Notes: a model not told the origin generated them from the letters alone. A stretch of 64,000 bases of DNA from an uncultured Actinomycetes bacterium (GCA_963799395.1 CAWCWZ010000060.1:3321-67320); one strand, 5' to 3'. Counted from the first letter of the stretch, positions 5,492 through 53,038 are shown. Made by a program: numbers and translations.

Positions 5492-5528
5492 GCCTTCTGA
5501 CCCCCCGAGCTGAGCCTGAGTGGTGCGG

Positions 5529-6044: not shown

Positions 6045-6048
6045 GGGG

Positions 6049-6867
6049 TCAGCCTCCCCCGGCGGAGCCGGGCTCAGGCCCGGGCGGCGCGGACGCGGCC
6101 GCGCAGCGTTGGCGGCGTGCCTCGAAGAGGAACAGGGCGGCGGCAACGCTCACGTTGAGACTGTCGACCGGACCCTGCATGGGGATCGCCGCGAGCTCGT
6201 CGCAGGCGCGGCGCACCAGCGGTCGCAGCCCGCGGCCCTCGGCGCCGAACACGAGCGTCACCTTGCCGCCGAGATCGAGGGCATCGTAGGGGCGGTCGGC
6301 GTCGCCGGCCGCCCCGTACACCCAGTACCCGGCCTGCTTGCACTCACGGACGAAGGCGACGACGTTCGTCACGTGGGCGATGTCCAGATGTTCGCTTGCT
6401 CCCGCCGACGCCTTGACGGCGGCCGGCGTGACCGCGGCCGAGCGATGCCGGGGCAGCGCGAGGCCGCCGGCGCCGGCGGCGAGCGCGCTGCGCGCGACGG
6501 CGCCGAGGTTGCGGGGGTCGGTCACTTCGTCGAGCACGACGAGCAGGTCGCAGCCCAGCAGCACGTCGGGGGCGACGTACGGGTAGTCGCCCACGAGGCA
6601 GGCCACCCCCTGGTGCTCGTGGCTGCCGGTCAGCTGCTGCAGTTCGCGCGGCTCCGCGCGTTCGACCTCGAGACCCGCAGGCGCGCCGGCGGCGGCGCGC
6701 CGACCTGTTCGCGAGTCTGCGGGCCGGGCTTCCGGCTCCGCCGCGGCGACGCCGTGGGCGGACAGCCAGGCCGCGCCCTCGGGGGTGGCCAGGAGCCTGC
6801 GCGGGCGGCGCTTCGCGCCGCCCGCGCAGGCCAGACGCACGACTTGGCGGCCGTAGATCCAGTCCAC
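6049..6867 (-). CDS. rlmB: 23S rRNA (guanosine-2'-O)-methyltransferase RlmB (SpoU/TrmH family)
   Basis: SpoU MTase motifs (LDEVTDPRNLGAVARSA, GAEGRGLRPLVRRACDELAAIPMQGPVDSLNVSVAAALFLFE). Probable GTG start near 6867. The upstream 75 aa of the six-frame ORF would overlap the cysS 3' end and are rejected. Confidence 0.75.
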   Translation of the reverse strand: MDWIYGRQVVRLACAGGAKRRPRRLLATPEGAAWLSAHGVAAAEPEARPADSRTGRRAAAGAPAGLEVERAEPRELQQLTGSHEHQGVACLVGDYPYVAPDVLLGCDLLVVLDEVTDPRNLGAVARSALAAGAGGLALPRHRSAAVTPAAVKASAGASEHLDIAHVTNVVAFVRECKQAGYWVYGAAGDADRPYDALDLGGKVTLVFGAEGRGLRPLVRRACDELAAIPMQGPVDSLNVSVAAALFLFEARRQRCAAASAPPGPEPGSAGGG

Positions 6868-6937
6868 GGTCAGAGAGGGGACCGGCGGCCCGCGGCCGCC
6901 GGTCCCGCCGCGCCTCTGCGAAGCGCCGCGCCGGCCA

Positions 6938-8520
<1,583 letters not shown>

Positions 8521-8524
<4 letters not shown>

Positions 8525-10062
8525 CGTGGGTCTCCTTCGGTCGAGTCGGGGGGCGGCGCGGCGGCGGGCGGCGCGGCGGCGGGCGGCGCGGCTGAGTGCG
8601 GCGCGGCGAGGGGCGGTGCGGCGGCGCCGGCGGCCGCGGCGACGCCGGTCGCCGCCGCGAGTCGCTCGAGGGTCTCGCCGGCGGCGAGCGCGGCGAGCAC
8701 GAAGTGCAGCTCGGGACCGTGGTCGCAGCCGGTGAGCGCCTGGCGCAGCGGCATGAGCAGCTCGCGCGGTCCGCAGCCGAACCGCTCCTTGCCCTGCCGG
8801 CGGTAGTCGACCAGCAGGCCGCGGGCCTCGTCGGGCGTGACGTAGGGCTGGGGCGCCGCCCGGCGCAGGTCGGCGAACAGACCGAGGCGGTCGCCGGCGG
8901 CGGCGAGCACCCGCCGCGTCTCGCCGTCGAGGGCGGGCCGGTCGAGGACTGCCGCGGCGAGCTGCGGCACGTCGGCGTAGCGTTCGAGCGAGGGCTTGAA
9001 GGCGGCGGCGAGCGCGGCGACGGCCGGCGCCGGGGCGCCGGCCGCCAGGCGCTCGCCGACCAGGCGCTCGTGCTCGGCGTCGCTCGATCTCATGATCCAC
9101 TGGTGGTTCAGCCAGTCGAGCTTGTGGATGTCGAAGATCGCCGGGCTGGTCGACAGGGCCTCGAGCGCGAAGCCGGCGACGAGCCGGTCGAGGTCGAGGA
9201 CTTCGTCGTCGCCGTGCGACCACGACAGCAGCGCCAGGTAGTTGACGATGGCCTGGGGCAGGTAGCCGAGCTCGCGGTAGTCGCCCACCGCCGTCGCGCC
9301 GTGACGTTTTGACAGCTTGCCGCCGCCCGGCGCCAGGATCATGGCGTGGTGGGCGTAGACGGGCGCCGGCGCGACCGGGTACAGGGCCCGGCGCAGGAGC
9401 TCCTGGCGAGCCGTGTTGGTGAGGTGGTCGTCGCCGCGGATGACGTGGGTGATGGCCATGGCCGCGTCGTCGACGACGGCGGCGAAGTTGTAGCTCGGCA
9501 GGTGGTCGGAGCGCAGGATGATGAAGTCGCCGATCGCCTCGCCGGCGATGGTGATGGGGCCGCGGATGGCGTCGTCGAAGGTCACGTCGCCGGCGGGCAC
9601 GGCAAAGCGCAGCGCGGCCGTCTCGCCGGCGCCGAGACGACGCTGCACCTCGGCGGCATCGAGCCCCCTGCAGCGGCCGTCGTAGCGCGGCGGGCGAGCG
9701 GCCGCGAGCGCCTCGGCGCGCAGCGCGTCGAGCCGCTCCTGGCTGCAGAAGCAGGGGTAGGCGAGGCCCGCGGCGGCGAGGGCGTCGGCCGCTCGACCGT
9801 AGGTCACGGCGCGCTCGGCCTGGCGGTAGGGACCGAACGGACCGCCGCGGTCGGGGCCTTCGTCCCAGTCGAGACCGAGCCAGGCGAGGTCGTCGAGGAT
9901 GGCCTGCTCGAAGCGCTCCTCGGAACGCGCCGCGTCGGTGTCTTCGATGCGTACGACGAAGCTGCCCCGGGCGTGGCGGGCGAAGAGGAAGTTGTAGAGG
10001 GCGGTGCGCGCCGAGCCGATGTGCAGCGTGCCCGTGGGGCTCGGCGCGAAGCGCACTCTCAC
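8521..10062 (-). CDS. gltX: Glutamate--tRNA ligase
   Basis: N-terminus MRVRFAPSPTGTLHIGSARTALYNFLF (HIGH motif) and KLSKR motif. Ala/Pro-rich C-terminal tail encoded by a short GC tandem repeat. Confidence 0.9.
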
Positions 10063-17697: not shown

Positions 17698-18765
17698 ATG
17701 CGTACACTGACTCTCGGCGATCGCGGCAAAGAAGTCTCCGACGTGCAGCAGCGGTTGCACGGGCTCGGCTACGAGCTCGGCAACGAAGGTCTCGACGGCT
17801 TTCTCGGACCGCGCAGCCAGCTCGCCCTCAGGGCGTTCCAGCAGGAACGCGGGCTGCTCGTCGACGGCATCCTCGGACCCAACACCTGGCACGAGCTGGT
17901 CGAGGCCGGCTACGCGCTCGGCGACCGCCTGCTGTACCTGCGCGTCCCCTACTTTCGCGGCGACGACGTGCTGGCGCTGCAGGTCAAGCTCAACCTCCTG
18001 GGATTCAACGCCGGCCGCGAACGCGGCATCTTCGACACCGCGGTCGAGCGGGCCCTGATCGACTTTCAGCGCAATGCCGGTCTGCCGTCCGACGGCATCG
18101 TCGGCGACGACACCCTGCGCAAGCTCGACGCCCTGCGCAAGGCCGAATCGGGCCGCGAAGGCAAGAAGATCCCCGACCGCGACGAGGGCTTTGTCCACGA
18201 CACGAGCCTCGCCGGCACGGTCGTGCTCATCGACCCCGGCCACGGCGGCCAGGACGTCGGCGTGGTCTCGCCCTCGGGCCGCAAAGAGAAGGACCTGACG
18301 CTCGCCGCCGGCCTGCGTCTCGCCGAGATGTTGCGGGCCGAGGGCAGCCGGGTCGTCATGACCCGCGAGACCGACCAGACCGTGCCGCTCTACGTGCGCA
18401 CCGACGCCGCCGAGACGGCGGCCGCCGACTACGTCGTCTCGCTGCACTTCAACGGCCACCACAACCCCGCGGCGGCCGGCGCCGTGGGCTACTTCTTCCA
18501 GCGCAGCCACTACTACTCCGAACACGGGGCGCGCCTGTCCGACTACATCGGCGCCGAGATCGGCCGGCTCTCCAGCGCCGGCTTCGTCGGCAGCCTCGGG
18601 CGCAACTTCGCCGTGCTGCGCGAGCCGACCGGCATAGCGGTCATGCTCGAGCCGCTCTTTCTGACCAATCCCGCCGACGACGCCCGCGCCGGCCGCGCCG
18701 ACTACGTCGAGCTCCTCGCGCGGGCCGTGGTCGCCGGCTTCTCACGCTACCTGGCTCGCGCCTAG
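17698..18765 (+). CDS. N-acetylmuramoyl-L-alanine amidase (Amidase_3) with two PG_binding_1 domains
   Basis: Two peptidoglycan-binding repeats (LxxxGYxxGxxDGxFGxxTxxAVxxFQ) followed by an Amidase_3 catalytic domain (VLIDPGHGG...LHFN). Ends in TAG. Confidence 0.8.
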   Translation: MRTLTLGDRGKEVSDVQQRLHGLGYELGNEGLDGFLGPRSQLALRAFQQERGLLVDGILGPNTWHELVEAGYALGDRLLYLRVPYFRGDDVLALQVKLNLLGFNAGRERGIFDTAVERALIDFQRNAGLPSDGIVGDDTLRKLDALRKAESGREGKKIPDRDEGFVHDTSLAGTVVLIDPGHGGQDVGVVSPSGRKEKDLTLAAGLRLAEMLRAEGSRVVMTRETDQTVPLYVRTDAAETAAADYVVSLHFNGHHNPAAAGAVGYFFQRSHYYSEHGARLSDYIGAEIGRLSSAGFVGSLGRNFAVLREPTGIAVMLEPLFLTNPADDARAGRADYVELLARAVVAGFSRYLARA

Positions 18766-18777
18766 GGACGACGCGCC

Positions 18778-19638
18778 GTGAGCACCCCACCCGAACCGGC
18801 GTCGACGGCCGGCTTTACCGCGACCCAGCGACAGCGCCTGCACGAGCTGGGCGCCACCGCCGCGGCAAGCGACGAGACCTTCGCCGGCGCGGCCGCCCGC
18901 GACGCGGCCTTCCTGCTCCTCGAGACAGAGCTCGCCGGCGCCGGCCGGGCGGCGCTCGACGCCCTGCGCGCCGGTGCGCGCCTGCCAGCGCTGCGCCGTC
19001 TCGAGGAGTCCCTGCGCGCCGCCCTCACCGGGGCCGGTCTGGTCGAGGTCGTGACCCCGGCCATCGTCGGCGGCGACGCCCTGCGCAAGATGGGCGTCGA
19101 ACCCGGTAGCGAGATGGGCGAGCAGGTCTTTCGCCTCGACGGCGACCGCTGCCTGCGGCCGATGCTCGCCCCCAACCTCTACACGCTGCTGCGCCGCCTC
19201 GCGCGCATCTGGAAGCAGCCCTTCGCGATCTACGAGATCGGCTCGTGCTTCCGGCGCGACACGAAGGGCAGCCGGCACCTGAACGAATTCACCATGCTCA
19301 ACCTGGTCGAGCTCGGCACGCCGCTCGAGCGCCGCGACGAGCGTCTGCGCGAACTGGCCGCCGTCGTGCTCGCGGCCGCCGGCGTGACCGGCTACGAGTT
19401 CACGCGCAAGCGCTCCGAGGTCTACGGCGACGAGCTCGACGTGGTCGTCGGCGGCCTCGAAGTCTGTTCCACGGCGCTCGGACCGCACCCGTTAGACGAC
19501 GCCTGGGCGATCACCGACCCGTGGGTCGGTCTGGGCTTTGGTCTCGAGCGCCTGCTCGTCGCCCGCGACGGCCTGGCCGGTATAGAGCGCGTGGGGCGCA
19601 GCCTGCGGTACCTGGACGGGGTGCGCCTGCAGCTGTAG
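18778..19638 (+). CDS. pylSc: Pyrrolysyl-tRNA synthetase, C-terminal catalytic subunit (split PylS)
   Basis: Class II aaRS core with PylS-specific blocks (CLRPMLAPNLY, HLNEFTMLNL, DPWVGLGFGLERLL, SLRYLDGVRLQL). Closely resembles Desulfitobacterium PylSc. GTG start, TAG stop. Confidence 0.85.
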   Translation: MSTPPEPASTAGFTATQRQRLHELGATAAASDETFAGAAARDAAFLLLETELAGAGRAALDALRAGARLPALRRLEESLRAALTGAGLVEVVTPAIVGGDALRKMGVEPGSEMGEQVFRLDGDRCLRPMLAPNLYTLLRRLARIWKQPFAIYEIGSCFRRDTKGSRHLNEFTMLNLVELGTPLERRDERLRELAAVVLAAAGVTGYEFTRKRSEVYGDELDVVVGGLEVCSTALGPHPLDDAWAITDPWVGLGFGLERLLVARDGLAGIERVGRSLRYLDGVRLQL

Positions 19639-19640
19639 CG

Positions 19641-19683
19641 CGCGAGGGGCGGGGTGAGGCTCCGCCTCACCCCGCCCCTCGCG
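19641..19683. terminator. Perfect 20-bp-stem hairpin between convergent pylSc and corrinoid-protein genes
   Basis: cgcgaggggcggggtgaggc-tcc-gcctcaccccgcccctcgcg. Probable bidirectional terminator without a U-tract. Confidence 0.6.
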
Positions 19684-19687
19684 CCGG

Positions 19688-20329
19688 CTACCTGCCCAGC
19701 AGGGCGTCGATCTTCTTGACGCCGTCGGCGGCGTCTTCGGCGTAGGCGTCGGCGCCGATCTGGTCGGCCCAGCGCTGGGTGCAGGGGGCGCCGCCGACCA
19801 CCGTCTTGAAGGGCAGGCCCTCGGCGCGGATGGCGGCGATCACCTTCTTCTGCTCCTCCATGGTGGTGGTGAGCAGGGCGCTCATGCCGATGACGTCGGC
19901 CTGCTCTTCCTTGGCCCGGGCGATGAAGGTGGCGGCCGGCACGTCGCGGCCGCAGTCGGTGACGGCGTAGCCGTGGGCCTTTAAGTAGGCGATGACGATG
20001 GCCTTGCCGATGTCGTGGACGTCGCCCTGCACGGTGCCGACGATGACGGTGCCCTTCTTCTCGCCCTCGCCGCCCACCAGGGCGGCGTTGCAGACCCTCG
20101 TGGCGGCGTCCATCGCCTGGGCGGCCAGCATGAGCTCGGGCAGAAAGACCTCGCCCGACTCGAAGGCGTCGCCGATCTGGCTGATGCCGACGACAAAGCC
20201 CTGGTTGATGATCTCGCCGGGGGCCATGCCGGCAGCGAGGGCGCGCGTGGCGACGTCCTCGGCGGCGGCGGCGTCGAAGTTGACGATCGCAGCGATCGCC
20301 TCTTGGATGAGCTCGTCTTTGTTGGCCAT
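19688..20329 (-). CDS. Methyltransferase cognate corrinoid protein (MtmC/MtbC/MttC family)
   Basis: ATG at 20329 with GAGGAGG upstream. B12-binding DxHxxG motif (DVHDIGK) and an N-terminal cap helix domain typical of methylamine corrinoid proteins. Confidence 0.8.
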   Translation of the reverse strand: MANKDELIQEAIAAIVNFDAAAAEDVATRALAAGMAPGEIINQGFVVGISQIGDAFESGEVFLPELMLAAQAMDAATRVCNAALVGGEGEKKGTVIVGTVQGDVHDIGKAIVIAYLKAHGYAVTDCGRDVPAATFIARAKEEQADVIGMSALLTTTMEEQKKVIAAIRAEGLPFKTVVGGAPCTQRWADQIGADAYAEDAADGVKKIDALLGR

Positions 20330-20547
20330 AGCGTGTGACTCCTCCTCGAAAAGTCGTGCCGTCCACTCGCGTGTCGTAGGGCGAAGTGAGTCGCGTCGCC
20401 GGCTCCGTCGCACGAGAGTCTCCTGCGGCCGGCAGCCGAACGGCGCCGGGCACAAGTATACAGGACGGCTCAGGCGCAAGCGCGGCTCGCGGCCGACCCG
20501 CCGATCCGGCGCCCCGACGGCGGCGACCCGCTTGATACAATGCGTTC

Positions 20548-21426
20548 ATGCGGTACTACGGCGCCGTCATCCGGCCCCCCAGCGAAGCCTCGAGCCTCAT
20601 CGTGCAGGTCACCTTCGGCTGCTCCAACGCCTCCTGCGACTTCTGCTCGACCTACCTCGACAAGCCCTTCGCGGTGCGGCCGCCCGACGAGGTCGTCGAA
20701 GACGTCACGGGCTTGCCCGACAGCATCAAGGCGCGGGTGCGGCGCGTCTTTCTCGCCGACGGCGACGCGCTCGCGCTGTCGCGCCGCCGGCTCGAGGACG
20801 TGCTCGCCCTCCTGCGCCGCGAGCTGCCCGCGCTCGAGCGGGTGAGCTGCTACGCGAGCGCCCAGAACCTGCTGAAGAAGAGCGCCGACGACCTGCACGC
20901 CATCCGCGAGGCCGGCCTCGAGATGCTCTACCTGGGCCTCGAGTCCGGCGACGACGCGACCCTCGCGGCCATCCACAAGGGAGTGACGGCGGCCGAGCAG
21001 ATCGAGGGTTGCTCCAGGGCGTCGGCGGCCGGCTTTGCCCTGTCGATCACGGCGATCCTCGGGCTGGCCGGCCCCGAGCGCTCGGCGCTGCACGCCACGG
21101 CCACCGGCGAGGCGCTGTCGGCCATCGATCCCCCGTACATCGGGGTGCTCAGCCTCATGGTCGAGCCCGGCACCCGCATCGCCGAGCAGGTGCGCAGCGG
21201 GGAGTTCGTCGTGCCCGACGCGCTCACCATGCTGGCCGAGCTGCGTGGCATGATCGCCGCCACGATCGTGACCGACGCCGTGTTCCGCTCCAACCACGCC
21301 TCGAACTACCTGCCGGTGGGCGGCCGCCTGCCCCACGACAAGGAAGCGATGCTGGCGGCCCTCGACGGCGTGCTGGCGGCGCCCGAGCGGGCTCGCCTCA
21401 AGCCCGAGGAGTGGCGCCTGCTCTAG
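20548..21426 (+). CDS. Radical SAM protein of unknown function
   Basis: N-terminal CSNASCDFC (CxxxCxxC) after RPPSEASSLIVQVTFG. 292 aa. Ends in TAG. Confidence 0.6.
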   Translation: MRYYGAVIRPPSEASSLIVQVTFGCSNASCDFCSTYLDKPFAVRPPDEVVEDVTGLPDSIKARVRRVFLADGDALALSRRRLEDVLALLRRELPALERVSCYASAQNLLKKSADDLHAIREAGLEMLYLGLESGDDATLAAIHKGVTAAEQIEGCSRASAAGFALSITAILGLAGPERSALHATATGEALSAIDPPYIGVLSLMVEPGTRIAEQVRSGEFVVPDALTMLAELRGMIAATIVTDAVFRSNHASNYLPVGGRLPHDKEAMLAALDGVLAAPERARLKPEEWRLL

Positions 21427-21479
21427 GGTCGGCCGCGGGCGCTCCGCGGCGCGGCCGCAAGCGACGACGACACCTGGGG

Positions 21480-21998
21480 ATGCCGTTGGCCGCGATCGAG
21501 ATCGTCGACTACGACCCCGGCTGGCCCGCTCGGTTCGAGGGGGCGGCGGCGCGCCTGCGCGCCGCCGCCCCCTCCCTCATCGTCGCCGTCGAGCACATCG
21601 GCAGCACCGCCGTCCCGGGGCTCGCCGCCAAGCCCGTCATCGACCTCATGCCGGCGGTCGCGGCCGGCCGCCCCGACGACCTCGACCGTTGCGTTGCGCC
21701 CATCGTCGCCCTGGGCTACGAGTACGTCGCCGACTACGAGGATGAGATGCCGTACCGCCGCTTCTTTCGTCTGCGGCTGGCCGGCAGCCAGGAGAACGTC
21801 CATCTCGTCGAGCAGGGCAGCGTGTTCTGGACGCGGCATCTGGCGTTTCGCGAGATCCTGCGAACCCACCCGGGGCTGGCCGCCGAGTACGCGGCGCTCA
21901 AGCGCTCGCTGGCGCCCCGCTACTCCGACGTCAACGACTACGCCGCCGCCAAGGCCGGCTTCATCGAAGCGATCCTCGACACGTTGGGAGCCGCCTAG
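21480..21998 (+). CDS. GrpB family protein (glutamate-rich protein B / nucleotidyltransferase-like fold)
   Basis: MPLAAIEIVDYDPGWPARFE...HIGSTAVPGLAAKPVIDL, as is typical for the GrpB/DUF151 family. Ends in TAG. Confidence 0.75.
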   Translation: MPLAAIEIVDYDPGWPARFEGAAARLRAAAPSLIVAVEHIGSTAVPGLAAKPVIDLMPAVAAGRPDDLDRCVAPIVALGYEYVADYEDEMPYRRFFRLRLAGSQENVHLVEQGSVFWTRHLAFREILRTHPGLAAEYAALKRSLAPRYSDVNDYAAAKAGFIEAILDTLGAA

Positions 21999-22089
21999 GA
22001 AACGCCGGCGAGGCCGCCCGGGTGTGCGCCTCGCCGCGGTTGGTCGGTCGCCGCGTCAACCCCGGCCGCGTCAGCCCCCGCGGCGTGCG

Positions 22090-22431
22090 TCAGTCCCTCC
22101 GCTCGCCCTCGCGCAGGTACGAGCCGTAGCCGCGCTTGAACTTCGTGGCGGCGTACTTCTGCAGCTTCCACTCGGGGATGCGGCACTCGGGACAGGCCTC
22201 GAAGAACAGCTTGTTGCGCAGCCAGCGGGCCGAGCGGCTGTTCTTGGAGTCGCGCACGATCATGGTCTTGCCGCAGTGGGTGGTGAGGCGGGCCCGCGTG
22301 CCCAACACCTCGAACTCCTTGATGCCGTGCAGCAGCCCGCGCCGCGAGGGCCACAGCTTCATCTTCTCGACGAGCCTGAAGAGCGGCACCTGCTTGCGGT
22401 AGTAGACGGCCTTGTTGGGGTCGGTCGGCAC
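22090..22431 (-). CDS. pylSn: PylS N-terminal tRNA-Pyl-binding domain protein (split PylS)
   Basis: LWPSRRGLLHGIKEFEVLGTRARLTTHCGKTMIVRDSKNSRSARWLRNKLFFEACPECR aligns with the Methanosarcina PylS N-domain, including the zinc Cys/His ligands. Probable GTG start at 22431; an alternative ATG lies at 22362. The Arg-rich N-terminal 72 aa of the track ORF are rejected. Confidence 0.75.
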   Translation of the reverse strand: MPTDPNKAVYYRKQVPLFRLVEKMKLWPSRRGLLHGIKEFEVLGTRARLTTHCGKTMIVRDSKNSRSARWLRNKLFFEACPECRIPEWKLQKYAATKFKRGYGSYLREGERRD

Positions 22432-22550
22432 CGCACGAGTGTAGCAAAGCCGAAGGCGGGTTGTGGCCCTGTCGCGCCCGGGCGGTCCGCCCGCGTACCG
22501 CCCGCGACTGAAGCGCTCGCCACCGCACGGCCGGCGAGCGGGCCGTGGAG

Positions 22551-24335
22551 CTACGTGAAGGTGCGATAGAACGGCAGACCGTCGTAGACGGCCCGCGTGG
22601 CGCGCCCGTCGATGACCGTGTCGAACGACAGACGGTCGGGGAGCCACGAGGGCGCGCCGACACGAAAGTCGCCGCCGGACAGCGGCACGAGCTCGAGCTC
22701 GTCAGCCGGGTAGAGCCAGGGCGCCACCATCAACAGGCGATTACGCCGGCAGATGACGGAGAAGACGGGGGCCCAGGGGTCGTACGAACGGTAGGTGCCG
22801 GTGAGCCGCGCCCACGAGGGGTCGGGGGCGGGCGCCGCGAGCGGCGCCCGCCCCTCGCGCGCAAACCACGAGGGGCCGCAGGAAAGCGCGACGACGGCGC
22901 CGCCGTCGTCGCGCTCGAAGCGCAGGTGGAAGCGGTCCCAGTCGGGGTGGGGCGCGAGGAACAGGTCGTCGCCCCTGCGCTCCAGAGCGATCTCGGCGAC
23001 GGCCGACGGCTCGGCGCCGACGCCCGAGCCGACGCTCGCGGCCGGAGCGGCCGGCAGGCGCAGGAACAGACGCTCGTCGTGAGCGGCCAGCGTCAGACCG
23101 CTCCAGGCTGGTTCGTCGTCGCCCGAGCTCGATGGCTCGCCACCCGCCGCGGCGTCCCGGCGGGCGTCGCCGGAGGGCGGCGCGACGTAGACGCCGGCGC
23201 ACTCGGCGGCCGCCGCGCCGATGATCGTCGGGTCGGCGGGCGGCGCTGGCGGGGGCACAGGCGCCCCCGCCAGCGCCGCCCGCAGCGCCCGCAGCGCGAA
23301 GCGCGCGATCTCCATGCGGTCGTCGGACCCGTTCACCAGCACGATCACGCCGATACCGGACGCCGGGTCGGTCACGAGCAGGCTGCTGAAGCCGACCATG
23401 CCGCCTGAGTGACCGACGCACTCGTGCCCGTCGAGGGTCCGCGTGACGAGCCCGTACCCGTAGAACGAGCCCGGCTCGTCGGGGTCTTCGACCACCCTGC
23501 TCGTCCAGAGCGCGAAGCTCTCGTCGCTCAACAGGCGGCCGCCGGGACCCGCGCCGCGGTTCAGGATCAGTCGCGCCCAAGCCAGCATGTCGGCGGCCGA
23601 CGAGACGATGCTGCCATCGGCCGTACAGCTCTCGATGCGCGTGGCTTCGACGACCGGCCGGCCGCCGTGCGCCGGCCGGTCGCCGCAGAGCTGCTCGTAG
23701 CCGGTCGCGACGGGCAGAGGCGAGTCGCGCCTGATCGTCGTCTCGGAGTCGATCATGGCGAGCGGCGCCACGATGCGATCGGCCACGAGCGTCGCGACCG
23801 GGCGCCCGGTCACCGCCTCGAGAGCCAGGCCGACGAGCTTGTAGCCGTCGTTCGAGTAGAGGAAGTGTTCGCCCGGCCCGTAGGTCAGCTCGGTCTCGCG
23901 CAACGACCACAGCGCGCAGCGCGCTTCGGCGCTGAACTCGGTGCCCATGGGCAGCCCCGACGTGTGGCTGAGCAGGTGGTGCAGCGTGATCGGGGCAAAG
24001 CGCGAGCGCACCGAGAACCAGGGCACGTAGTCGGTCACCGGCGCGTGCAGATCGACGCGGCCGGCTTCGTGCTCCTGGAGGAGCACCGCGGCCGTGAACG
24101 ACTTGCTGATCGAGCCGATCTGAAAGCGCGTGTCGGGTTCGACCGGCGTGCCGGCCGCGACACTCGCGAGGCCCTGACAGACGAAGCCCAGCGTGCGCTC
24201 GCTGTCGGTCAGCCCGATCGCCACGCCCGGAGCAGCGAGCCGCGGCAGGCGCGCCGCGACGAACTCGTCGACGGCCCCGAGAGCGGTGATCAGATGGTCG
24301 TGCCGGCTTGAGTCGGTGAAGCTCACGCCGACCAT
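22551..24335 (-). CDS. Beta-lactamase-family serine hydrolase (class C / PBP4-like)
   Basis: SxxK motif (SISKSF), YSN motif (LYSNDGY) and HSGG motif in a 594 aa ORF. Confidence 0.7.
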   Translation of the reverse strand: MVGVSFTDSSRHDHLITALGAVDEFVAARLPRLAAPGVAIGLTDSERTLGFVCQGLASVAAGTPVEPDTRFQIGSISKSFTAAVLLQEHEAGRVDLHAPVTDYVPWFSVRSRFAPITLHHLLSHTSGLPMGTEFSAEARCALWSLRETELTYGPGEHFLYSNDGYKLVGLALEAVTGRPVATLVADRIVAPLAMIDSETTIRRDSPLPVATGYEQLCGDRPAHGGRPVVEATRIESCTADGSIVSSAADMLAWARLILNRGAGPGGRLLSDESFALWTSRVVEDPDEPGSFYGYGLVTRTLDGHECVGHSGGMVGFSSLLVTDPASGIGVIVLVNGSDDRMEIARFALRALRAALAGAPVPPPAPPADPTIIGAAAAECAGVYVAPPSGDARRDAAAGGEPSSSGDDEPAWSGLTLAAHDERLFLRLPAAPAASVGSGVGAEPSAVAEIALERRGDDLFLAPHPDWDRFHLRFERDDGGAVVALSCGPSWFAREGRAPLAAPAPDPSWARLTGTYRSYDPWAPVFSVICRRNRLLMVAPWLYPADELELVPLSGGDFRVGAPSWLPDRLSFDTVIDGRATRAVYDGLPFYRTFT

Positions 24336-24475
24336 TGTGTCAGAGTCGGCAGCCCCCGCGAAGTGGGCGAGTCGCCGACGCCTCTCGGACGCGGCCGTCT
24401 GCCGTTGGGCCTGAGAGCCGGCACACCCCCGCCTGCAGCTCCAGCAGGCGACCGCACACGGCAGGGGGATTGTGG

Positions 24476-24548
24476 TGGCGGGGAGTAGGGGAGTTACACC
24501 CCTCTACGCGGATTTAGAGTCCGCGCTGATCCTTCCGATCGACCCCCC
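24476..24548 (-). tRNA. pylT: tRNA-Pyl (amber suppressor, anticodon CUA)
   Basis: Minus-strand sequence GGGGGGTCGATCGGAAGGATCAGCGCGGACTCTAAATCCGCGTAGAGGGGTGTAACTCCCCTACTCCCCGCCA. 7-bp acceptor stem, 4-bp D-stem with a 5-nt loop, 6-bp anticodon stem, loop CUCUAAA, short variable loop, T-loop lacking TPsiC, discriminator G and encoded CCA. Nearly identical in architecture to Desulfitobacterium tRNA-Pyl. Confidence 0.85.
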
Positions 24549-24625
24549 GCGCCGACTCCAAGGCTAGCGCATCCGGACCGTGCGGCCAAGCATCCGCGGG
24601 GCGTGGCGCACCGGCCGCGGGCTTG

Positions 24626-24940
24626 TCAGGCTGCAGCGACGTCGGACCGCGGCAGAGCCGCGACGATCTGCTTCGCCTCCTCCAGGCCGAATGCCTTGAG
24701 CGACGTCGTGCGGACCGTCCCGCCCGCGCTCAGCGCGAGCGCGAACGCCGCCGCCGCCTTGTCGTCGGGGCCTTCTCCGATGGCCACATAGTCGAAGTCG
24801 CCCATGGTCATGTACATGTCGAGCACCTTGCCGCCCATCGACTCCCAGAGCTTGATGCCGTCAGAGATGCGGTCCGGCGAGTGCTTGACGTCGGCGATGC
24901 CCTTGTCGGTCAGTTTCATGAGCAAGATGTAGGTCACCAT
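24626..24940 (-). CDS. GYD domain protein
   Basis: 104 aa. ATG at 24940 with GAGGAGG upstream. GYD family signature (MGDFDYVAI...PDD). The track fuses it to pylD only because the pylD frame reads through. Confidence 0.7.
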   Translation of the reverse strand: MVTYILLMKLTDKGIADVKHSPDRISDGIKLWESMGGKVLDMYMTMGDFDYVAIGEGPDDKAAAAFALALSAGGTVRTTSLKAFGLEEAKQIVAALPRSDVAAA

Positions 24941-25043
24941 ACGCCCGCCCTCCTCGTGAACGACACAACTGAAGACCAGCCGACCGATGCGCCAGACCGC
25001 AGAGCGTAGCACCGGCCAACGGCGGCCGAGGACGAACCGTGGA

Positions 25044-25897
25044 TCAGCCGACCAGCGCCCGCACGGCCATGACGGCGACGCCGAGGGCGAGCGGCTCGTG
25101 CACGAGCCGCTCGCCCAGCGCCCGGGCGGCCGCGGCCGTGACGCCGGGCGGCAGGCCCGGTGAGCAGACGATGCCGTCGGCGCCCGCCCAGTCGGCGTCG
25201 ATGAGATCGGGTGTCGGCGTGGCGTCGAGCACGAGCCGGCAGCGCCCTGAGGCCGGCGGCTAGGGTGACCGGCGTGACCGGCAGCGCGCCGGCCACCGCG
25301 GCGAGACGGTCCTGGTCGAGCTCGCAGACCAGCACGTCGGCGCCAAGCTCGACGAGGCGCGGCGGCCGCCGCCCGACCGACCGGGCCGAGGCCGATCACC
25401 AGGACCGGTTTGCCGGCGACGCCGCCCCGGCCGGCAGCGGCGTCGGGAGCGGCGTCCCTCCCGGCAGCGGCGTCGAGGGCCGCGACGTAGGCGTGCGCCG
25501 TACACGGGTCGTCGTCGGCCACCGCGCGGCGAGCGAAGTCGAAGGCCAGGAACCCGCGGTCGTCGGCGGCGAAGACCAGATCGTCGTCGCCGGCGAGCGC
25601 CTCGGCGAAGCCGCCGACGTCGGTCGCCTCGGTCACGCGCACGGCGCGGCAGCCCAGATGGCAGCAGATCGCCGCCACGCAGTCGGTGAAGCCCGGGATC
25701 AGGCCCTCGCCGCTCGTGATCGGCACGACGGCGACGGCGGCGTGGGCGAGGGCGTCGCGAGCGACGCCCTCGCCCACGCCGCAGGCCCGCGCGGCGAGCG
25801 TCGCGAAGTCGCAGCCGGTGAGCGCTGCGAGCGCCCGCTCGACCTCGTCGAGATGCGCGGTCAGAGAGCGGACGTCGCCTTCGACGAGACGTGTCAC
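25044..25897 (-). pseudogene. pylD: pylD (3-methylornithyl-N6-L-lysine dehydrogenase) disrupted by two +/-1 frameshifts
   Basis: The N-terminal 170 aa (VAVVPITSGEGLIPGF...VLVIGLGPVG), the middle segment (VLVCELDQDRLAAVAGALPVTPV) and the C-terminus (LVLDATPTPDLIDADWAGADGIV...) each match PylD. They lie in three different frames, in track ORFs 24626-25897, 24934-25335 and 25044-25232. The ATG overlaps the pylC stop. Confidence 0.75.
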
Positions 25898-27196
25898 GGG
25901 GCGCCCTCGCCACGGTCCGACGCCGGCCCGGGCTGAGACTCGGGCACGAGCTCGAGACCGTGCTCGTCGGCGAGGCGCGTGACGGTGGCGGCGGCCCGCG
26001 CGCGGGCCGCCACCGCCGTCGCCCCGCGCGTCATCAGCACCGCGACCCAGCGGCCCCGCGAGGCGCCGCTCTCGGGGCGGTCGGTGAGCACCACGTCGGC
26101 GCCGTACAGGCCGTCGCAGCGGCGCAGGGGGCCGGCGCCGCCGACGATGTGCTCGCCGAGCACCTCGACCCTGCCGTCTTCGACCAGCACGTGCTCGTAG
26201 ACGGCGCCACGCCGGGCCCCGATAGCCACGGCCGGCGGCCGCTCGGCGGCGAAGGTCTCGGCGAGCAGCGCGACGATGTTCGCGTCGCTTGCGTGGTACA
26301 CGGCGGCGGGCGTCTGGCTGGGCAGGCGAGCGTCGATCTCGATCACTTTGGGCGTGCCGTCGGCGGCAACCATGACTTCGACGTCCATCACGCCGGCGAG
26401 GCCCACGCCCTCGGCCAGGCGCCGGGCGGTGGCGTCGAGCGCGGCCAGCGTCGCGGCGCTCACCGTCGCGGGCGACGACGCGCCGCCGGCCTCAGCGCCG
26501 CCGGATTGCCGCGACCCGCCGCCCGCCTCGCCGCCGGCGCCGCCGGTCGCCGCGCCGCCGGCGCCGTCGACCGGCGCGACCACGCGCTTGCAGTCGTAGG
26601 CCGCGTCGAACTCGAGGAAGGTCGGCAGGAGCGTCAGAGCCTCGCCGCCGAGCGCGATCACCTCGACCGACAGCGACGGTCCGGCCACGAACTCCTCGAC
26701 CACCGCCTCGGCGCCGTGAGCGGCGAGGGCGGCGCGCGCCAGCGCCAGGCCGGGTTCCGACCGCACGAGCTGAACGCCCGTGCTGCCGCTGCCGACGCTG
26801 GGCTTGACCACCGCCGGAAAGCCGCAGCGCGGCCAGGGCCGCGGACGCGGCACGTCGAGCCGCTCGAACAGCGCGTTGGAGCGCAGCTTCGACCGCGTCA
26901 CCGCATAGGCGCCCAGGTCGAAGAGCAGCGGCAGGCCCATCATCGGCACGAACGAGGTGAGGAACTCGAGGGCGCGGTCGTCCTCGCAGGCCGGCAGCAC
27001 GGCGTCGCACGACAGCAGCACCTCGCGGGCACGCGCCGGATCGGCGACGACGTCGAAGACGTGGACCTCGGTGGCCAGGCCGACCGCCGGACGGTCGGGC
27101 CGGCGGTCGATCAGCACCGACGTCGTAGCCGGCCTCGCCGGCCAGATAGGCGGCCTCGGTGCCCTGCAGCTTGCCGCCGACGACGGCCAGCCTCAT
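25894..27196 (-). pseudogene. pylC: pylC (3-methylornithine--L-lysine ligase, ATP-grasp) with one frameshift near the 5' end
   Basis: The N-terminal 26 aa MRLAVVGGKLQGTEAAYLAGEAGYDV are in track ORF 26492-27196. The remainder, with the PylC-typical MDVE...VIEIDARLPSQTP, is in ORF 25894-27117. Confidence 0.75.
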
Positions 27197-27241
27197 GCCA
27201 CCCTCCCCCGCGCCGCGATCGTGGCCCTCACGCGGCCGCCC

Positions 27242-28337
27242 TCATGCCGGCGCCGGCTGGTCGACCGGGGCCCGGCGGGCCGCGGCCCGGCGCTCGCGGG
27301 CGGCGGCGACCCAGTCCGCATACTCGCCCGGGGTGGCGACGCGCAGCCCCAGCGCCCGGAGCCGGGCGGCGACCTCGGTGGCCGTGCGCAGGCCTTCGTC
27401 GATGTCGAGCTCCGACTGCGACACGCCGGCCAGGCCGGTGTCGGGCGGCACGATCGAGGTGACGACGTTGGCTCCGGCGGCGATGCGCGACTCGAGCCCG
27501 GCGATGCCGTCGACGTCGAGCGAGGCGGGGATCAGACGGTCGGGCATGGCGAGGCGCATGGTGGCGATCGTGACGAGCTCGCCGAGGCGGCCGGCCGGCG
27601 TGAGGTCGGCGAGCGGCGTGCCGCGCTGCGGCACGAAGGTCATGACGCGCACCTGATCGAGCGGTTCGTCCCGCATGGCGGCGACCGTGAGCGCGCGCTC
27701 GGCGACCGTCTCCCCCACGCCCAGCAGCATGCCGTCCTCGACCAGCATGCCCAGGGCGGCCGCGTCGCGCCGCGCCTGCAGGCGTTCGTCGAACTCCTGT
27801 CCGGTGCGTAGCCGCGAGTAGAGCTCGCGGGCGTGGGTCTCCTGGTAGCAGGCGTACCACTCCGCGCCGATGTCGCGCAGCGCCCCCAGCACGCCGGGCG
27901 TGACGACGCCGGGCGACACCATCACCGGCAGGCTCGGTGGCCGCCTTCACGGCGGCCACGAGCTCGACGAGGGCGTCGAACTCGCCGCTTGCGTAGTAGA
28001 GGGGGTCCTCGCCCATGGTCAGGTCGATCAGATGCACGCCCGATGCGGCGAGGCCGGCGCTGATCGCGACCACCTCGTCGAGCGACTTGCGATAGCGGGG
28101 GCTCTCGGCGTTGCCGCGGCGGTACAGGCAGAACGTGCAGCCGTTGCGGCACCAGGTCGAGAAGTAGACGAAGCCGTAGAGGAACACCGCGTCGCCGAAC
28201 CGGCGGCGGCGCAGCTCGGCCGCGGCGGCGAACAGCCCCGCCGCGGCGGCCGGATCGTCGATCGAGAGCAGGGTCTCGATCTCGCCGGCCGAGGGCGTCT
28301 CGCCGGCGAGCGCCCGCGCGAGGATGCCGTCGACCAC
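27242..28337 (-). pseudogene. pylB: pylB (methylornithine synthase, radical SAM) with one frameshift
   Basis: The N-terminal part, with YGFVYFSTWCRNGCTFC and LTMGEDPLYY, is in track ORF 27228-28337. The C-terminal part (MVSPGVV...YACYQETH...RLIPASLDVDGIAG...GANVVTSIVPPD) is in ORF 27242-27925. The junction near 27930 is a 1-nt indel. Confidence 0.75.
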
Positions 28338-28439
28338 GGCCTGACCGGCGCTTGCCGGTCACGACCGCTGCGGCCGGCCAGACGCCGGAGCGGCCGTGGA
28401 CGCCGCGGCGTCGCCGCCCTGGAGCCGCACCCGGACCAG

Positions 28440-29120
28440 GATCCGCACCCGGCTCGGACGTCGCGAAGCGCAGGACATCGTCGACCGGCAGCCGCTTGGT
28501 CCCGCCGGGACTGCTCGCCGGCACGCCGACGGCGACGATCGCGACCAGGTGCGCCGGCGCCTCGACCCGCAGGAGCTCCTCGAGACGCGGGGCGGCCAGC
28601 ACCGGCGCGCTCATCCAGCACGAGCCGTAGCCCAGCGCGTGCGCGGCGGTGACCAGGAGCTGTACGGCGGCGCCGACGCTCTGCAGGTCGGGCCGGGCGC
28701 GCAGCCGGTCGCGTTCCTCGCGCGACACGCCGCGCAGCGCGAGCAGACGGTCGCCGTGCGACTCGTAGGGCAGGCCGAGCACGGCGATCGCGAGCGGCGC
28801 GTCGGCGAAGAACGTGGCGTAGCCGCGCAGGCGCGCGTCTCGCGCTCGAGGCCCGCCGCCTCGACCTCGGGCCAGCCGGCCATCTCGTCGAGGCGCTCCT
28901 CGACCGCGGTGCGCATGGCCGACAGCAGCGCGCGGTCGTCGACCGCGATGAAGCGCCAGGGCTGGGCGTTACCGGCGTTGGCCGCCAGGGTCGCCAGGCG
29001 CACCATCTCGCGTACGTCGTCGCGCGGCACGGACTCGCTCGTGAAGCGGCGCACGCTGTGGCGGCCTTCGACGGCGGCCACGAGCCCGGGAAGGGCTTCG
29101 GACGGGGGACGGCGAATCAT
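28440..29120 (-). pseudogene. Nitroreductase family protein, frameshifted
   Basis: The N-terminal part (HSVRRFTSESVPRDDVREMVRLATLAANAGNAQPWRFIAV) is in one frame. The C-terminal part (DLQSVGAAVQLLVTAAHALGYGSCWM) is in another (ORF 27922-28782). The 3' end is uncertain. Confidence 0.55.
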
Positions 29121-29257
29121 CACTTCCACATGGTACCAGAGGCGAAGGGGGTGCTTCGTTTGCGGAAGTGGGGTGACCCGGCGCGACCCATGAGCCGGCG
29201 CGGCGCACGCGAGGGCGAGGCGGCGGTCGCCGCCTCGCCCTCGTTGCAACGAGTGAG

Positions 29258-29767
29258 TCAGGCCTGGACGGCCACCGTCTTGTCGGCCTTGTCGACCTTG
29301 AGGTCGATCGCCAGGACGTACGGGTTCTGACAGAAGGCGATGCACTGCGGGTCGCCGTCGCACAGGTCGCACTTGTAGGCGACCTTGCGCTCGGGGTGCT
29401 CGTGGATGACGCCGTACGGACAGACGTCGTAGCAGTCGCCGCAGTTCGTGCACTTGTCCTCGTCGACCGACCAGCACGACGCCCTTGACCGACTCGCCGA
29501 CCTTCTCCGTGCTGGCGAACGTGCGCCTGACGGGCGTGACCGTGATCGCGCGCGTCACGATCGCGTCGTCGGGACACGCCTCCTGGCACTTCGCGCAGGC
29601 GGTCTGCAGGCAGGTGTGGCCCTTGATCACGGCCGTGGTCGGGTTGCACGTCGGCGAACAAACGGACACGCGACGGCCGGTAAGCCGCCTTCGTGGTACG
29701 CCGAGCACGCCGAGCTCGCACATGTGGCAGCCGGTGCACTTCTTGCTGTGATCATGACGTGTGGCAT
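29258..29767 (-). pseudogene. Four-cluster [4Fe-4S] polyferredoxin (AorA/HycB-like), at least 2 frameshifts
   Basis: ATG at 29767 (MPHVMIT), 32 nt after the AOR stop, with GGAG upstream. Cys motifs CTGCHMC, CLQTACAKCQEACP, CTNCGDCYDVCP and CDLCDGDPQCIAFC are spread over three reading frames. The last two lie in a frame I translated by hand, ending at TGA around 29258. Confidence 0.55.
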
Positions 29768-29799
29768 GACTGGCTCCCTGTCCTTGTCGGTGCCACCGC

Positions 29800-31642
29800 C
29801 TAGAGCCGCACGTCGACGCCGAGCTCGGTGAGCTTCGCCTCGGTGGGCACACCGTTCGCGTCCCAGCCGCGCAGCTCGTAGTACTGCGCCGCAGGGACTC
29901 GCCGCAGGTGCGCTTCGCCGATGACCTTGCCGGCGGACGGGCCCTGGTGTGGGCGAACTTCTCGCTGCAGGCTTCTTGGGCACGCGGTCGTCGGCTTCGA
30001 CGCCCTCGCGCAGGTTGAACAGGCGCCCGAGGTTCCAGACTCGCTCGCCCATGAGCATGACCTCGTCTTCGGGACAGCTCGCGCTCCAGAGGTGCGTCAT
30101 GCAGCTGCGAGATCTGCTCGTGGTCGACCGCCCAGAAGTCGCACCAGATGCCGCAGAACTTGATCGAGCTGAAGTTCTGGCTGAGAAGTCGAGCGGCCGG
30201 TTGCCGATGGCGCCCTCGACCTTGCCCTCCATGGTGGCCGCCGGCATGGCGCCCTCGACGATCTCGTCGCCCACCGGGTACGTGCGCATGTGGCAGCCGC
30301 CGCGGTCGGAGGTGGCGTAGCGATGCTCATGCCGAACGAGCCGCGCGGGTCGTAGCCGGGCAGTCTCGAGGTTCTTGACCTGCATGGCGAGCTCGGGCGC
30401 GTCCGTACTTCTCGGCGAGAGCTGCGCACGCCCAGCGCGAGCTCGGCGCCGACGCCCTGCGCTTGCGGCGAGCTGCCCGGGCGACCTTGAGTACGCGTCG
30501 GCCTCGCCGAAGCGCACGCCGAAGTCGTGGATGCCCTTCTCGGTCATGTCCATGGCAAGCCCGATCACGGCGCCCGAGGAGATCGTGTCGAGGCCCCACT
30601 CGTCGCACTCCTCGTTGAACTTCATGAGAGCGTCGATGTCGTCGATGCCGCAGTTCGCGCCGCACAGGGCGATGGTCTCGTACTCGGGACCCTCGCCCAT
30701 GACCTTCTCGTCGTGCCAGGTGACAGCGTGCACGTTGCGGCAGGCGATGGCGCACTGGTAGCAGGCGCGCTTCTTGATGCGGATCTTCTGGAACGACTCC
30801 GAGTTCAGGTTCTTGGCGCCCTCGAAGTAGCCCTCGGACCAGTTCCTGGTGGGCATGGCGCCGGCGCCGTTGACCAGGTCGACGAGAATCGGCGTGCCCT
30901 CTTCGTGGGCCCAGAGGTTGTCGTCGGTCAGGACGAACTCGCTGTGCGATGCGCGCCATGTCGGCGAGAAAGGCCTTGGCGTCGCCGACCGTCACGCTGC
31001 CGGTGCCGCGGACGGCGATGGCCTTGAGGTTCTTGGAGCCCATCAGGGCGCCGTGACCGCCACGACCGGCCTTGTGGTACTGATCGGTCGACAGGCAGGC
31101 CCAGGGGATGAGCGTCTCGCCGGCCGGGCCGATCGACAGGGTCTTGGCCTCGGGGTCGAAGTCGTCGCGCAGGGCCTGCTCGATCTCAGAGGTCTTCATG
31201 CCCCAGTACCTGGGCCTGGCGGGCACGACTCGACGACGTCGTCGCGGATGGTGACGACCGTCGGTTCGGCGGCCTTGCCGAGGACGATGATCGCATCGTA
31301 GCCGGCGAACTTCATCTCGGGAGCGAACGAGCCGCCCACGTAGCTGTCGTTCAGGATGCCGGTGGTCGGACTCTTGGCGCCGACGACCAGTCGCGACGTG
31401 GTCGACACGTTGGTGCCGGCGAACGGTCCGGTCATGAGGAACAGCGGGTTCTCGGGCGCCCAGGGGTCGACCAGGGGCGGCACGTACTCCCACATGTAGC
31501 GAAACAGGAGCCCCTTGCCGCCCACGTACAGTGCGGCCCACTCCATGTTGAGAGGCTCGACCTTCGTGGTCTTCGCGCTCATGTCGATCGTGAGCACGTT
31601 GCCCTTGTAGAAGTCCACGTGGCCCTCCCTCTGGGTTGTCAC
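29800..31642 (-). pseudogene. Tungsten-type aldehyde:ferredoxin oxidoreductase (AOR family), at least 6 frameshifts
   Basis: AOR-homologous segments occur in alternating frames. These are the N-terminus (track ORF 31196-31642), the GRGGHGALMGSKNLKAIAV block (ORF 30327-31892), and the middle and C-terminal parts (ORF 29627-30856: PTRNWSEGYFEGA, ACYQCAIAC, GPEYETIALCGANCGIDD, YATSDRGGCHMR, GERVWNLGRLFNLREG). The last 45 aa (YYELRGWDANGVPTEAKLTELGVDVRL) and a TAG stop are in a third frame. Junk segments lie between the homologous blocks. Confidence 0.75.
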
Positions 31643-32134: not shown

Positions 32135-32170
32135 GGGAGCCTCCTTGGCGTGGTGAGGTGAGCTTGTCGG

Positions 32171-33169
32171 CTAAAGCCGGGCGGCGACGGCCCGGGCGAA
32201 CTCCTGCGTGCCGGCCGCGCCGCCCAGGTCGGGCGTCAGCTGCCGACCCTCGGCGATGACGGCGGCCACGGCGTCGTGGAGGCGCGCGGCGGCGACGGTC
32301 TCGCCCAGGTGCTCGAGCATGAGCACGCCCGACAGCAGAAAGGCCGTGGGGTTCACGATGTCGCGCCCGGCGATGTCGGGGCCGCTGCCGTGCACGGCCT
32401 CGAACACGGCGGCGTCGGCGCCCACGTTGGCCCCCGGCGCGACCCCGGGGCCGCCGATCAGTCCGGCGCAGAGGTCGCTGACGATGTCGCCGTAGAGATT
32501 GGGGCAGACGAGCACGTCGAAGCGCTCGGGCGCCATCACGAGCTGCTGGCAGAGGTTGTCGACGATACGGTCGTCGAACTCGACGTCGGGGTAGGCCGCG
32601 GCCACCTCCCGGGCGACGCGCAGGAACAGGCCGTCGGTGAGCTTCATGATGTTGGCCTTGTGCACGGCCGTGACCCTGTGGCGGCCGTGAGCCCGGGCGT
32701 ACTCGAAGGCGTAGCGCACGATGCGCTCGCTGCCGCGCCGCGTGATGACCTTGACGGACTCGGCGACGTCGGGAGTGAGCTGGTGCTCGATGCCGGTGTA
32801 CAGGTCTTCGGTGTTCTCGCGCACGACCACGAGGTCGATGCCCGTGAAGCGACTGGGCACGCCGACGAGCGACTTCGCCGGTCGCAGGCAGGCGTAGAGG
32901 TCGAGAGCCACGCGCAGCGCCACGTTGACCGAACGAAAGCCCGATCCCACCGGAGTCGTGACCGGCCCCTTCATGGCGACCTTCGTGGCCCTGACCGACT
33001 CGACGACCTCGTCGGGCAGCGGTGTGCCGCGGCGCTCCAGCACCGCGGCGCCGGCGTCGTGGCGCTCCCAGACGATGGCCACGCCGCTGGCGGCGATCAC
33101 GGTCTCGAGGGCGGCGGCCAGCTCGGGGCCGGTGCCGTCGCCGGGAATGAGCGTCACATGATAGGCCAT
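32171..33169 (-). CDS. leuB: 3-isopropylmalate dehydrogenase / homoisocitrate dehydrogenase family
   Basis: ATG at 33169 ([16 protein letters not shown]). IDH/IMDH fold motifs. The N-terminal 58 aa of the track ORF are read-through. Confidence 0.8.
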
Positions 33170-49228: not shown

Positions 49229-49454
49229 CGCATCACTCCGCTTCGTCACCACGAACGGCCCACGGGGGCGTTCCATCATCAACGTCGGCTGCGTGTCTGC
49301 TCGAGCCGGTCGCCGCGCGTCGGCATCGCGGCCCGAGACCCGGACGACCGCTCGACCCATTGTCGCGCCTCGGCGGCGGGGCGCGCAACCGCGAGCCCCG
49401 GCGGCGGGGCGCGCCACCGCGCGCCACCGCCGACGGCCGCGAGCGGCTCGCGCC

Positions 49455-50336: not shown

Positions 50337-50392
50337 CTTGAGTCCAGTCCTTTGTTCGCTTGCCTTCGCGCGACGGGCCGCCGCGCGCTGCT

Positions 50393-52926: not shown

Positions 52927-53038
52927 CGCGCCCTCCTACTGTAGATCCACTGTTCCACGCGTTCAGAATATGAGGCTGGAGGCCCCTGAGCGGAGCCGTC
53001 CTATTGTGACGGATTCTACAAGGTCCGAAATTGGGGGG

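Follow-up and report, generated by a model that had tools for sequence, protein, structure and literature searches.

The closest characterized relative of the system described here is the pyrrolysine (Pyl) cluster of Desulfitobacterium hafniense, in which a synthetase of the bacterial PylSn + PylSc class is encoded within the gene order pylT-pylSc-pylB-pylC-pylD-pylSn. In Methanosarcina, PylSn and PylSc are fused, the pylTSBCD operon is compact and UAG is rare. Here we describe the pyl locus in a stretch of 64,000 nucleotides from an uncultured Actinomycetes bacterium (GCA_963799395.1, CAWCWZ010000060.1:3321-67320; hereafter the window), in which genes for the same five Pyl proteins and tRNA-Pyl(CUA) as in D. 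hafniense are dispersed. Within the same phylum and with the same PylSn + PylSc class, PylRS has been reported in two Actinobacteria (Guo et al. 2022, PMC9630628) and Stordalen Mire Actinobacteriota express Pyl-encoding mttB/mtbB, the genus Bog-752 being listed there as one of the most active methylotrophs (Ellenbogen et al. 2023, PMC10805028). The accessible text of these two papers reports presence and expression, not locus layout. A first-pass annotation of this DNA had taken Pyl systems to be undescribed in Firmicutes of roughly 70% GC; for the actinobacterial lineage to which the window belongs, Pyl use is already on record in these papers. In the literature on pyrrolysine in Thermoleophilia, Actinobacteriota and Actinomycetota we found no description of the locus itself.

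The window shares with D. hafniense a synthetase split over two genes and tRNA-Pyl features of the bacterial type, and with Methanosarcina homologous PylB, PylC and PylD as well as a PylSn fold homologous to that of M. mazei. It differs from D. hafniense in that the genes are not contiguous: pylSc and pylSn lie on different strands, 2.5 kb apart, pylT is found downstream of pylD and not at the head of the cluster, and genes for a corrinoid protein, a radical SAM protein (rSAM), a GrpB family protein, a beta-lactamase-like hydrolase (bla) and a GYD-domain protein are interspersed. The host also differs, being an actinobacterium of ~70% GC. In contrast to Methanosarcina, the window has a split synthetase and dispersed genes, and 29% of its genes end in TAG. 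Along the window, pylSc converges with the corrinoid gene, the rSAM gene follows on the plus strand, and pylSn, pylT and the run pylD-pylC-pylB all lie on the minus strand. This is an ordinary pyrrolysine system in an arrangement that is lineage-specific and little described. Most probably it is the chromosomal pyl system of an uncultured anaerobic bacterium of the Thermoleophilia, order UBA2241, in or near Bog-752, with a dispersed layout that is inherited and lineage-wide and into which variable inserts have come. The pyl genes are as follows.

18778-19638, plus strand: pylSc, intact, 286 amino acids, TAG stop (TIGR02367 profile)
22090-22431, minus strand: pylSn, intact, 113 amino acids (TIGR03912 profile)
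24476-24548, minus strand: tRNA-Pyl (pylT), anticodon CUA, CCA encoded (ARAGORN)
25044-25897, minus strand: pylD, broken by single-base insertions at 25245 and 25361 (TIGR03911)
25894-27196, minus strand: pylC, broken by a single-base insertion at 27119 (TIGR03909)
27242-28337, minus strand: pylB, radical SAM methylornithine synthase, broken by a single-base insertion at 27934 (TIGR03910)

The first-pass annotation had placed pylSc, pylSn and tRNA-Pyl at exactly these positions, and all three calls hold: both synthetase genes exceed their NCBIfam equivalog cut-offs as assembled and ARAGORN returns the tRNA at the same coordinates. The non-cassette arrangement that it proposed is real, as are the corrinoid gene convergent with pylSc (Pfam B12-binding_2 + B12-binding) and the interspersed GrpB, radical SAM and beta-lactamase-like genes; the GYD gene was absent from its account. 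Judged by profiles and alignments, the five proteins and the tRNA belong to Pyl-specific families and not to generic LysRS, BioB or ATP-grasp families; the refutation test that the annotation had set for itself leaves the identification standing. Its description of the system as complete needs qualification. All six components are present where it placed them, but pylB, pylC and pylD carry four frameshifts between them.

Synthetase halves and tRNA-Pyl

Both halves of the synthetase score far above their profile cut-offs. PylSc reaches 287.5 bits with TIGR02367 (PylS_Cterm, cut-off 178.15), and its best solved relative is D. hafniense PylSc (3DSQ/2ZNI), to which it is 51% identical without gaps over 280 amino acids (298 bits). 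This alignment also shows conservation of the residues that we match to R330, N346, Y384 and W417 of M. mazei. PylSn reaches 123.5 bits with TIGR03912 (PylS_Nterm, cut-off 51.15), and the match corresponds to the C-terminal 113 codons of a longer open reading frame (ORF; 22090-22647, minus strand). One His and three Cys are identical in the alignment with the best solved relative, M. mazei PylSn (5UD5); we take these four residues to be the zinc ligands of that structure. PylSn is 74-96% identical to the copies in relatives.

Of the two tRNAs that ARAGORN calls in the window, one is tRNA-Pyl. Its cloverleaf has a single base between the acceptor and D stems, a D loop of 5 nucleotides, an anticodon stem of 6-7 base pairs and a variable loop of 2-3 nucleotides, and it folds with an energy of -35 kcal/mol (z = -3.4). 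Across six members of the lineage all 23 of 23 base pairs are kept, with compensatory changes at three of them, while sequence identity in five relatives is 86-97%. The general Rfam tRNA model did not detect this tRNA and gave only sub-threshold chance matches (Tymo_tRNA-like, Scr4115), so the call rests on ARAGORN together with covariation. That a general model should miss it is consistent with the atypical structure of tRNA-Pyl. The sequence has G1:C72, discriminator G73, U33 and A37, which the D. hafniense enzyme uses as identity elements and which are expected of the bacterial type.

A side observation concerns the stop codon of pylSc (19636-19638). TAG, the very codon that the pylSc product helps to suppress, ends this gene in 10 of 14 loci (the window and L001-L013), compared with 29% TAG among the genes of the window. 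The loci are related, and the bias may therefore reflect shared ancestry instead of selection.

The biosynthetic genes as assembled are broken by single-base insertions

As assembled, a single ORF covers profile positions 7-138 of 347 in PylB (TIGR03910, 144.4 bits against a cut-off of 348.2) and 1-162 of 266 in PylD (TIGR03911, 101.8 bits against 150.05). The longest PylC ORF scores above its cut-off (TIGR03909, 266.5 bits against 248.3), yet it starts without the first 26 residues, which are encoded in a different frame. For all three proteins the missing parts are found in other frames of the same strand. A plot of GC at third codon positions and a Viterbi decoder based on codon usage revealed frame changes without stop codons near 25240 and 25360 in pylD, 27118 in pylC and 27931 in pylB. 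The +1 insertions were then placed at 25245, 25361, 27119 and 27934 by alignment to a metagenome contig (L001; ENA ERZ25039519, contig_49052), which has the same gene order as the window and 96-98% nucleotide identity.

Removal of these four bases restores full-length proteins and raises the scores to 170 bits for PylD (cut-off 150), 311.9 bits for PylC (248.3) and 443 bits over the full length for PylB (348). PylB and PylD pass their Pyl-specific models only after this repair. The best solved relatives of the repaired proteins are M. barkeri PylB (3T7V, 285 bits), PylC (4FFL) and PylD (4J43). PylB contains the CxxxCxxC motif and PylD the Rossmann GxGxxG motif. Two length differences were also seen: pylD has an in-frame insertion of 30 nucleotides relative to L001 (~25409-25449) that duplicates a DAAAGR motif, and PylC has a Gly/Ala-rich insert of ~50 amino acids relative to M. 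barkeri PylC (window ~26450-26600).

The damage extends upstream of pylB. A tblastn search with intact relatives recovered the aldehyde:ferredoxin oxidoreductase (AOR) in four pieces and the ferredoxin and the nitroreductase in two each. Elsewhere in the window only two genes are split. The LarC/nickel-insertion protein (53016-54449, break at ~53.26 kb) matches its profile from 1-329 in one frame and from 326-375 in another, and the GT4 glycosyltransferase (54338-55466, break at ~55.1 kb) has its N- and C-terminal domains in different frames.

The arrangement is conserved among Thermoleophilia genomes

A scan with PylSc over one genome per GTDB species returned 12 loci. All 12 share the gene order GluRS-Orn/Lys/Arg decarboxylase-PmbA-TldD-HTH-BacA-amidase-pylSc at 51-91% amino-acid identity, and all 12 genomes are metagenome-assembled genomes (MAGs) labeled Actinomycetota, Thermoleophilia or "uncultured Actinomycetes". 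These MAGs and their labels stem from separate, independent studies (Stordalen Mire, SMAG, binchicken and the MFD series). One of the loci, L003, belongs to isolate bog_752, a Stordalen MAG, and has the same flanks and a PylSc that is 88% identical. This isolate gave its name to the GTDB genus Bog-752, which is classified as d__Bacteria; p__Actinobacteriota; c__Thermoleophilia; o__UBA2241; f__UBA2241 in the supplement of PMC10805028, and UBA2241 MAGs have been obtained along a permafrost-thaw gradient and in lake hypolimnia (McDaniel et al., PMC7438021).

The genes that lie among and next to the pyl genes are listed here.

19688-20479, minus strand: MtbC-like corrinoid protein, maximal ORF (Pfam B12-binding_2 + B12-binding)
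20548-21426, plus strand: radical SAM protein of 292 amino acids (PF04055), divergent from the corrinoid gene
21486-21998, plus strand: GrpB family protein (PF04229, 158 bits)
22551-24335, minus strand: beta-lactamase/D-aminopeptidase-like serine hydrolase (bla), 594 amino acids (NCBIfam models, below cut-off)
24626-24940, minus strand: GYD-domain protein between pylD and tRNA-Pyl (PF08734, 89.7 bits)
28435-31642, minus strand: nitroreductase, ferredoxin and AOR upstream of pylB, all frameshifted, with Pfam matches split over frames

Seven relatives (L005, L006, L009, L010, L012, L014 and L016) have the same pyl order including tRNA-Pyl, and ERZ1426840 has the same gene order as the window in a comparison of protein genes only, as DNA for the tRNA was not available. 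The shared order runs pylSc, corrinoid gene (minus), rSAM gene (plus), pylSn (minus), tRNA-Pyl (minus) and pylD-pylC-pylB (minus), followed by nitroreductase, ferredoxin and AOR, which are syntenic neighbors and not pyl genes. Across these loci PylSc identity falls as low as 64%, and GC content is the same in the pyl region as in the remainder of the window. The inserts vary from locus to locus and include YceI + MarR, GrpB, bla, SulP, methyltransferase-11, Germane/Gmad2 and GYD genes. Among the relatives, GrpB occurs only in L001, L002 and L011 and bla only in L001 (fragmented), L002, L011 and L013, while the GYD gene is confined to the window and L001. The matches of the bla product to NCBIfam models, for class C beta-lactamases and for D-aminopeptidases, all fall short of the cut-offs. 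Because the scattered gene order is conserved across the lineage, it is inherited and not the product of recent transfer; we reject a recent horizontal acquisition on the grounds of uniform GC and lineage-wide synteny. The locus documents a full pyl set with a conserved non-cassette layout in what are probably uncultured, anaerobic, high-GC Thermoleophilia of order UBA2241 from peat and soil.

Proposed function

By analogy with characterized systems, PylB would convert lysine to 3-methylornithine, the ATP-grasp ligase PylC would join 3-methylornithine to a second lysine, and PylD would oxidize the PylC product to pyrrolysine. The split synthetase, PylSc with PylSn, would charge tRNA-Pyl(CUA), and the charged tRNA is expected to decode in-frame UAG codons of methylamine methyltransferase genes (mttB, mtbB) that would lie in another part of the genome. 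Methyl groups might then be passed via an MtbC-like corrinoid protein, for example the neighbor of pylSc, into tetrahydrofolate-dependent one-carbon (C1) metabolism. We draw the link to methylamines because of the adjacent MtbC-like corrinoid protein, the C1 and NuoE/F-like genes in the window and the published expression of mttB/mtbB. The C1/tetrahydrofolate cluster (46735-52926) encodes a formate-tetrahydrofolate ligase (Fhs), an FTCD_C cyclodeaminase-like protein (FchA) and FolD, and adjoins NuoF-like and NuoE-like genes; it fits anaerobic methyl-group metabolism.

The locus backs the metatranscriptomic report that Actinobacteriota at Stordalen Mire use Pyl-dependent tri- and dimethylamine methyltransferases, enzymes that compete with methylotrophic methanogens for methylamines. 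In addition, the GC-rich trio of PylSc, PylSn and tRNA-Pyl might be of interest for genetic-code-expansion work.

Corrinoid and radical SAM genes between pylSc and pylSn

The corrinoid protein scores 209.6 bits with TIGR02370 (pyl_corrinoid), just under the cut-off of 215.3, and 202 bits with the MtbC equivalog (cut-off 350). Alignments to relatives begin at residues 33-45, and the true start probably lies ~30-50 codons inside the maximal ORF. The rSAM protein carries a C-x4-C-x2-C motif. Its similarity to B12-dependent class B enzymes is confined to their radical-SAM half, and it has no B12 domain itself. Across many clusters of the lineage its identity is 70-94%. It has no characterized homolog and no close solved relative, the best match in the PDB having E = 0.003. 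The divergent pair (19688-21426) is present in every relative that covers this stretch, namely L002, L005, L006 and L009-L016.

Alternative readings of the host, the frameshifts and the corrinoid/rSAM pair

The first-pass annotation read the locus as a novel pyl system in a Firmicutes-like genome of ~70% GC, possibly acquired horizontally, and argued from SigH and from sigH/yacP synteny. The synteny is indeed present. A sigma factor at 4808-5491 scores 256.7 bits with an NCBIfam SigH model, above the cut-off of 208, and gltX-cysS-rlmB-yacP-sigH, with NYN_YacP, are consecutive on the minus strand (4808-10062) in the same order as in Bacillus; among solved structures, PylSc is also closest to that of Desulfitobacterium. 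As an argument for Firmicutes, however, the synteny fails, since it is native to these actinobacterial MAGs: the same 90% SigH cluster has a member apparently on the Actinomycetota contig that gave L005. SigH/YacP synteny in a Thermoleophilia genome is therefore not diagnostic of Firmicutes. With all 12 syntenic genomes labeled Actinomycetota or Thermoleophilia, L003 in order UBA2241, and the pyl order and flanks kept down to 64% PylSc identity at uniform GC, a Firmicutes-like host or a horizontal origin is highly improbable. A proposal that concerns the corrinoid protein and the 292-amino-acid rSAM is that they are functional parts of the Pyl/methylamine module of this lineage, for example a two-component cobalamin-dependent radical SAM enzyme. 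All loci that cover the stretch have the pair between pylSc and pylSn, while other inserts come and go, and the rSAM is strongly conserved, aligns to nothing but the radical-SAM half of class B enzymes and lacks a B12 domain. Against this, the evidence is one of linkage, and synteny within a lineage can be inherited without functional coupling; the corrinoid protein looks like an ordinary partner of MtbC/MttC-type methyltransferases, and the rSAM has no characterized homolog. We regard as unlikely both this proposal, under which the Thermoleophilia pyl locus would have an extra module with a new two-component cobalamin/rSAM activity, and, separately, real frameshifts in pylBCD.

For the frameshifts, we consider it likely that the pylBCD insertions and those in the three upstream genes are local consensus errors of a long-read metagenome assembly. 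L001 lacks all four pylBCD insertions and encodes an intact PylD (273 amino acids) and PylB (372 amino acids), with pylC broken at a different site. Single-base insertions particular to L001 are found in TldD, BacA, GrpB, bla and the corrinoid gene, all intact in the window, and in L016, from the same ENA series, genes are heavily fragmented. In the window itself, genes unrelated to pyl (LarC and the GT4 glycosyltransferase) are split as well. After frame correction, the window and L001 differ by 8 synonymous and 1 nonsynonymous changes in PylB and by 13 synonymous and 6 nonsynonymous changes in PylD. Polarization with five outgroups gave no window-unique amino-acid changes at otherwise conserved sites in PylB and PylD and three in PylC, so the former two show no sign of long-term decay, with a less clear picture for PylC. 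Each of the four events in pylBCD is a +1 insertion, as are most of the rest, and in 7 of the 13 single-base insertions at 25.2-29.8 kb the base is unlike both of its neighbors. Bacterial mutation is deletion-biased and slippage-driven, and non-duplicating insertions look more like consensus error than replication slippage.

The frameshifts could instead be real, the strain having recently inactivated a block of 6.6 kb (pylD, pylC, pylB, nitroreductase, ferredoxin and AOR) but retained pylSc, pylSn and tRNA-Pyl. Such a strain would depend on outside Pyl as an auxotroph or be on its way to losing the trait, with PylRS and tRNA-Pyl but without Pyl synthesis. Several observations lean this way or weigh against an active Pyl system with assembly errors. 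The frame changes are clustered, at least nine falling within seven consecutive genes in 6.6 kb compared with two in the other 57 kb, and such clustering is not predicted by a uniform error process. PylC differs from L001 about evenly, by 12 synonymous and 11 nonsynonymous changes, so the signal of purifying selection comes from PylB and PylD only. The near-identical L001 has, besides its broken pylC, a 203-bp deletion that removes the 3' 29 nucleotides of tRNA-Pyl, and L002, L011 and L013 have intact pylSc and pylSn with no pylT or pylBCD at the syntenic position within the fetched flank; real loss in the lineage is therefore conceivable, and in the last three genomes pylT and pylBCD may be located elsewhere or lost. 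Neither mttB, mtbB, mtmB nor a TAG-interrupted ORF was found in the 64 kb window, and none of these lies within 10 kb of the pyl genes in relatives with DNA, so that the use of Pyl by the organism is something we infer. UAG is not avoided either: TAG ends 17 of 59 window genes (29%), pylSc included, which implies competition with release factor 1 or regulated expression, as in other Pyl-using bacteria. Real inactivation nevertheless appears unlikely. Neither PylB nor PylD shows relaxed selection, PylB, PylC and PylD together hold only three window-unique changes at conserved sites, the events are mostly +1 (all four of those in pylBCD) and half of them add a base that duplicates no neighbor, and L001 and L016 show like damage in housekeeping genes. 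If the insertions are indeed consensus errors, as we favor, the practical warning is that "complete" pathways from long-read MAGs can hide frameshifts.

Further observations

The deletion in L001 (L001 15555 = window 24302-24504) fuses the 5' part of bla with the interior of tRNA-Pyl and could be real or a misassembly. In L013, bla is followed by one oxidoreductase gene and then by AOR. The SigH-like factor of the window is of the sporulation type and stands in a Thermoleophilia (Actinomycetota) genome.

Candidates for client genes of the Pyl system were considered and rejected at three places. In relatives, the 1.4 kb that separate pylSc from the corrinoid gene are occupied by YceI-like and MarR genes, with no methyltransferase gene among them. 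Other unexplained stretches in relatives, considered for mtxB, contain none; they encode a SulP transporter, a methyltransferase-11 protein, MarR and AOR, among others. As for TAG read-through, the only long in-frame extensions are neighboring genes, amidase/pylSc and dehydrogenase/DUF3467. The amidase TAG is in frame with pylSc (18763-18780), and the TAG of the isocitrate/isopropylmalate dehydrogenase is in frame with the DUF3467 gene (32168-32173); UAG read-through would fuse either pair. The amidase/pylSc frame relation fails in L002 and is therefore probably a coincidence.

At 93-1508 the window also encodes a BchE-like B12-binding radical SAM protein (class B, 471 amino acids), which is unrelated to the pyl genes.

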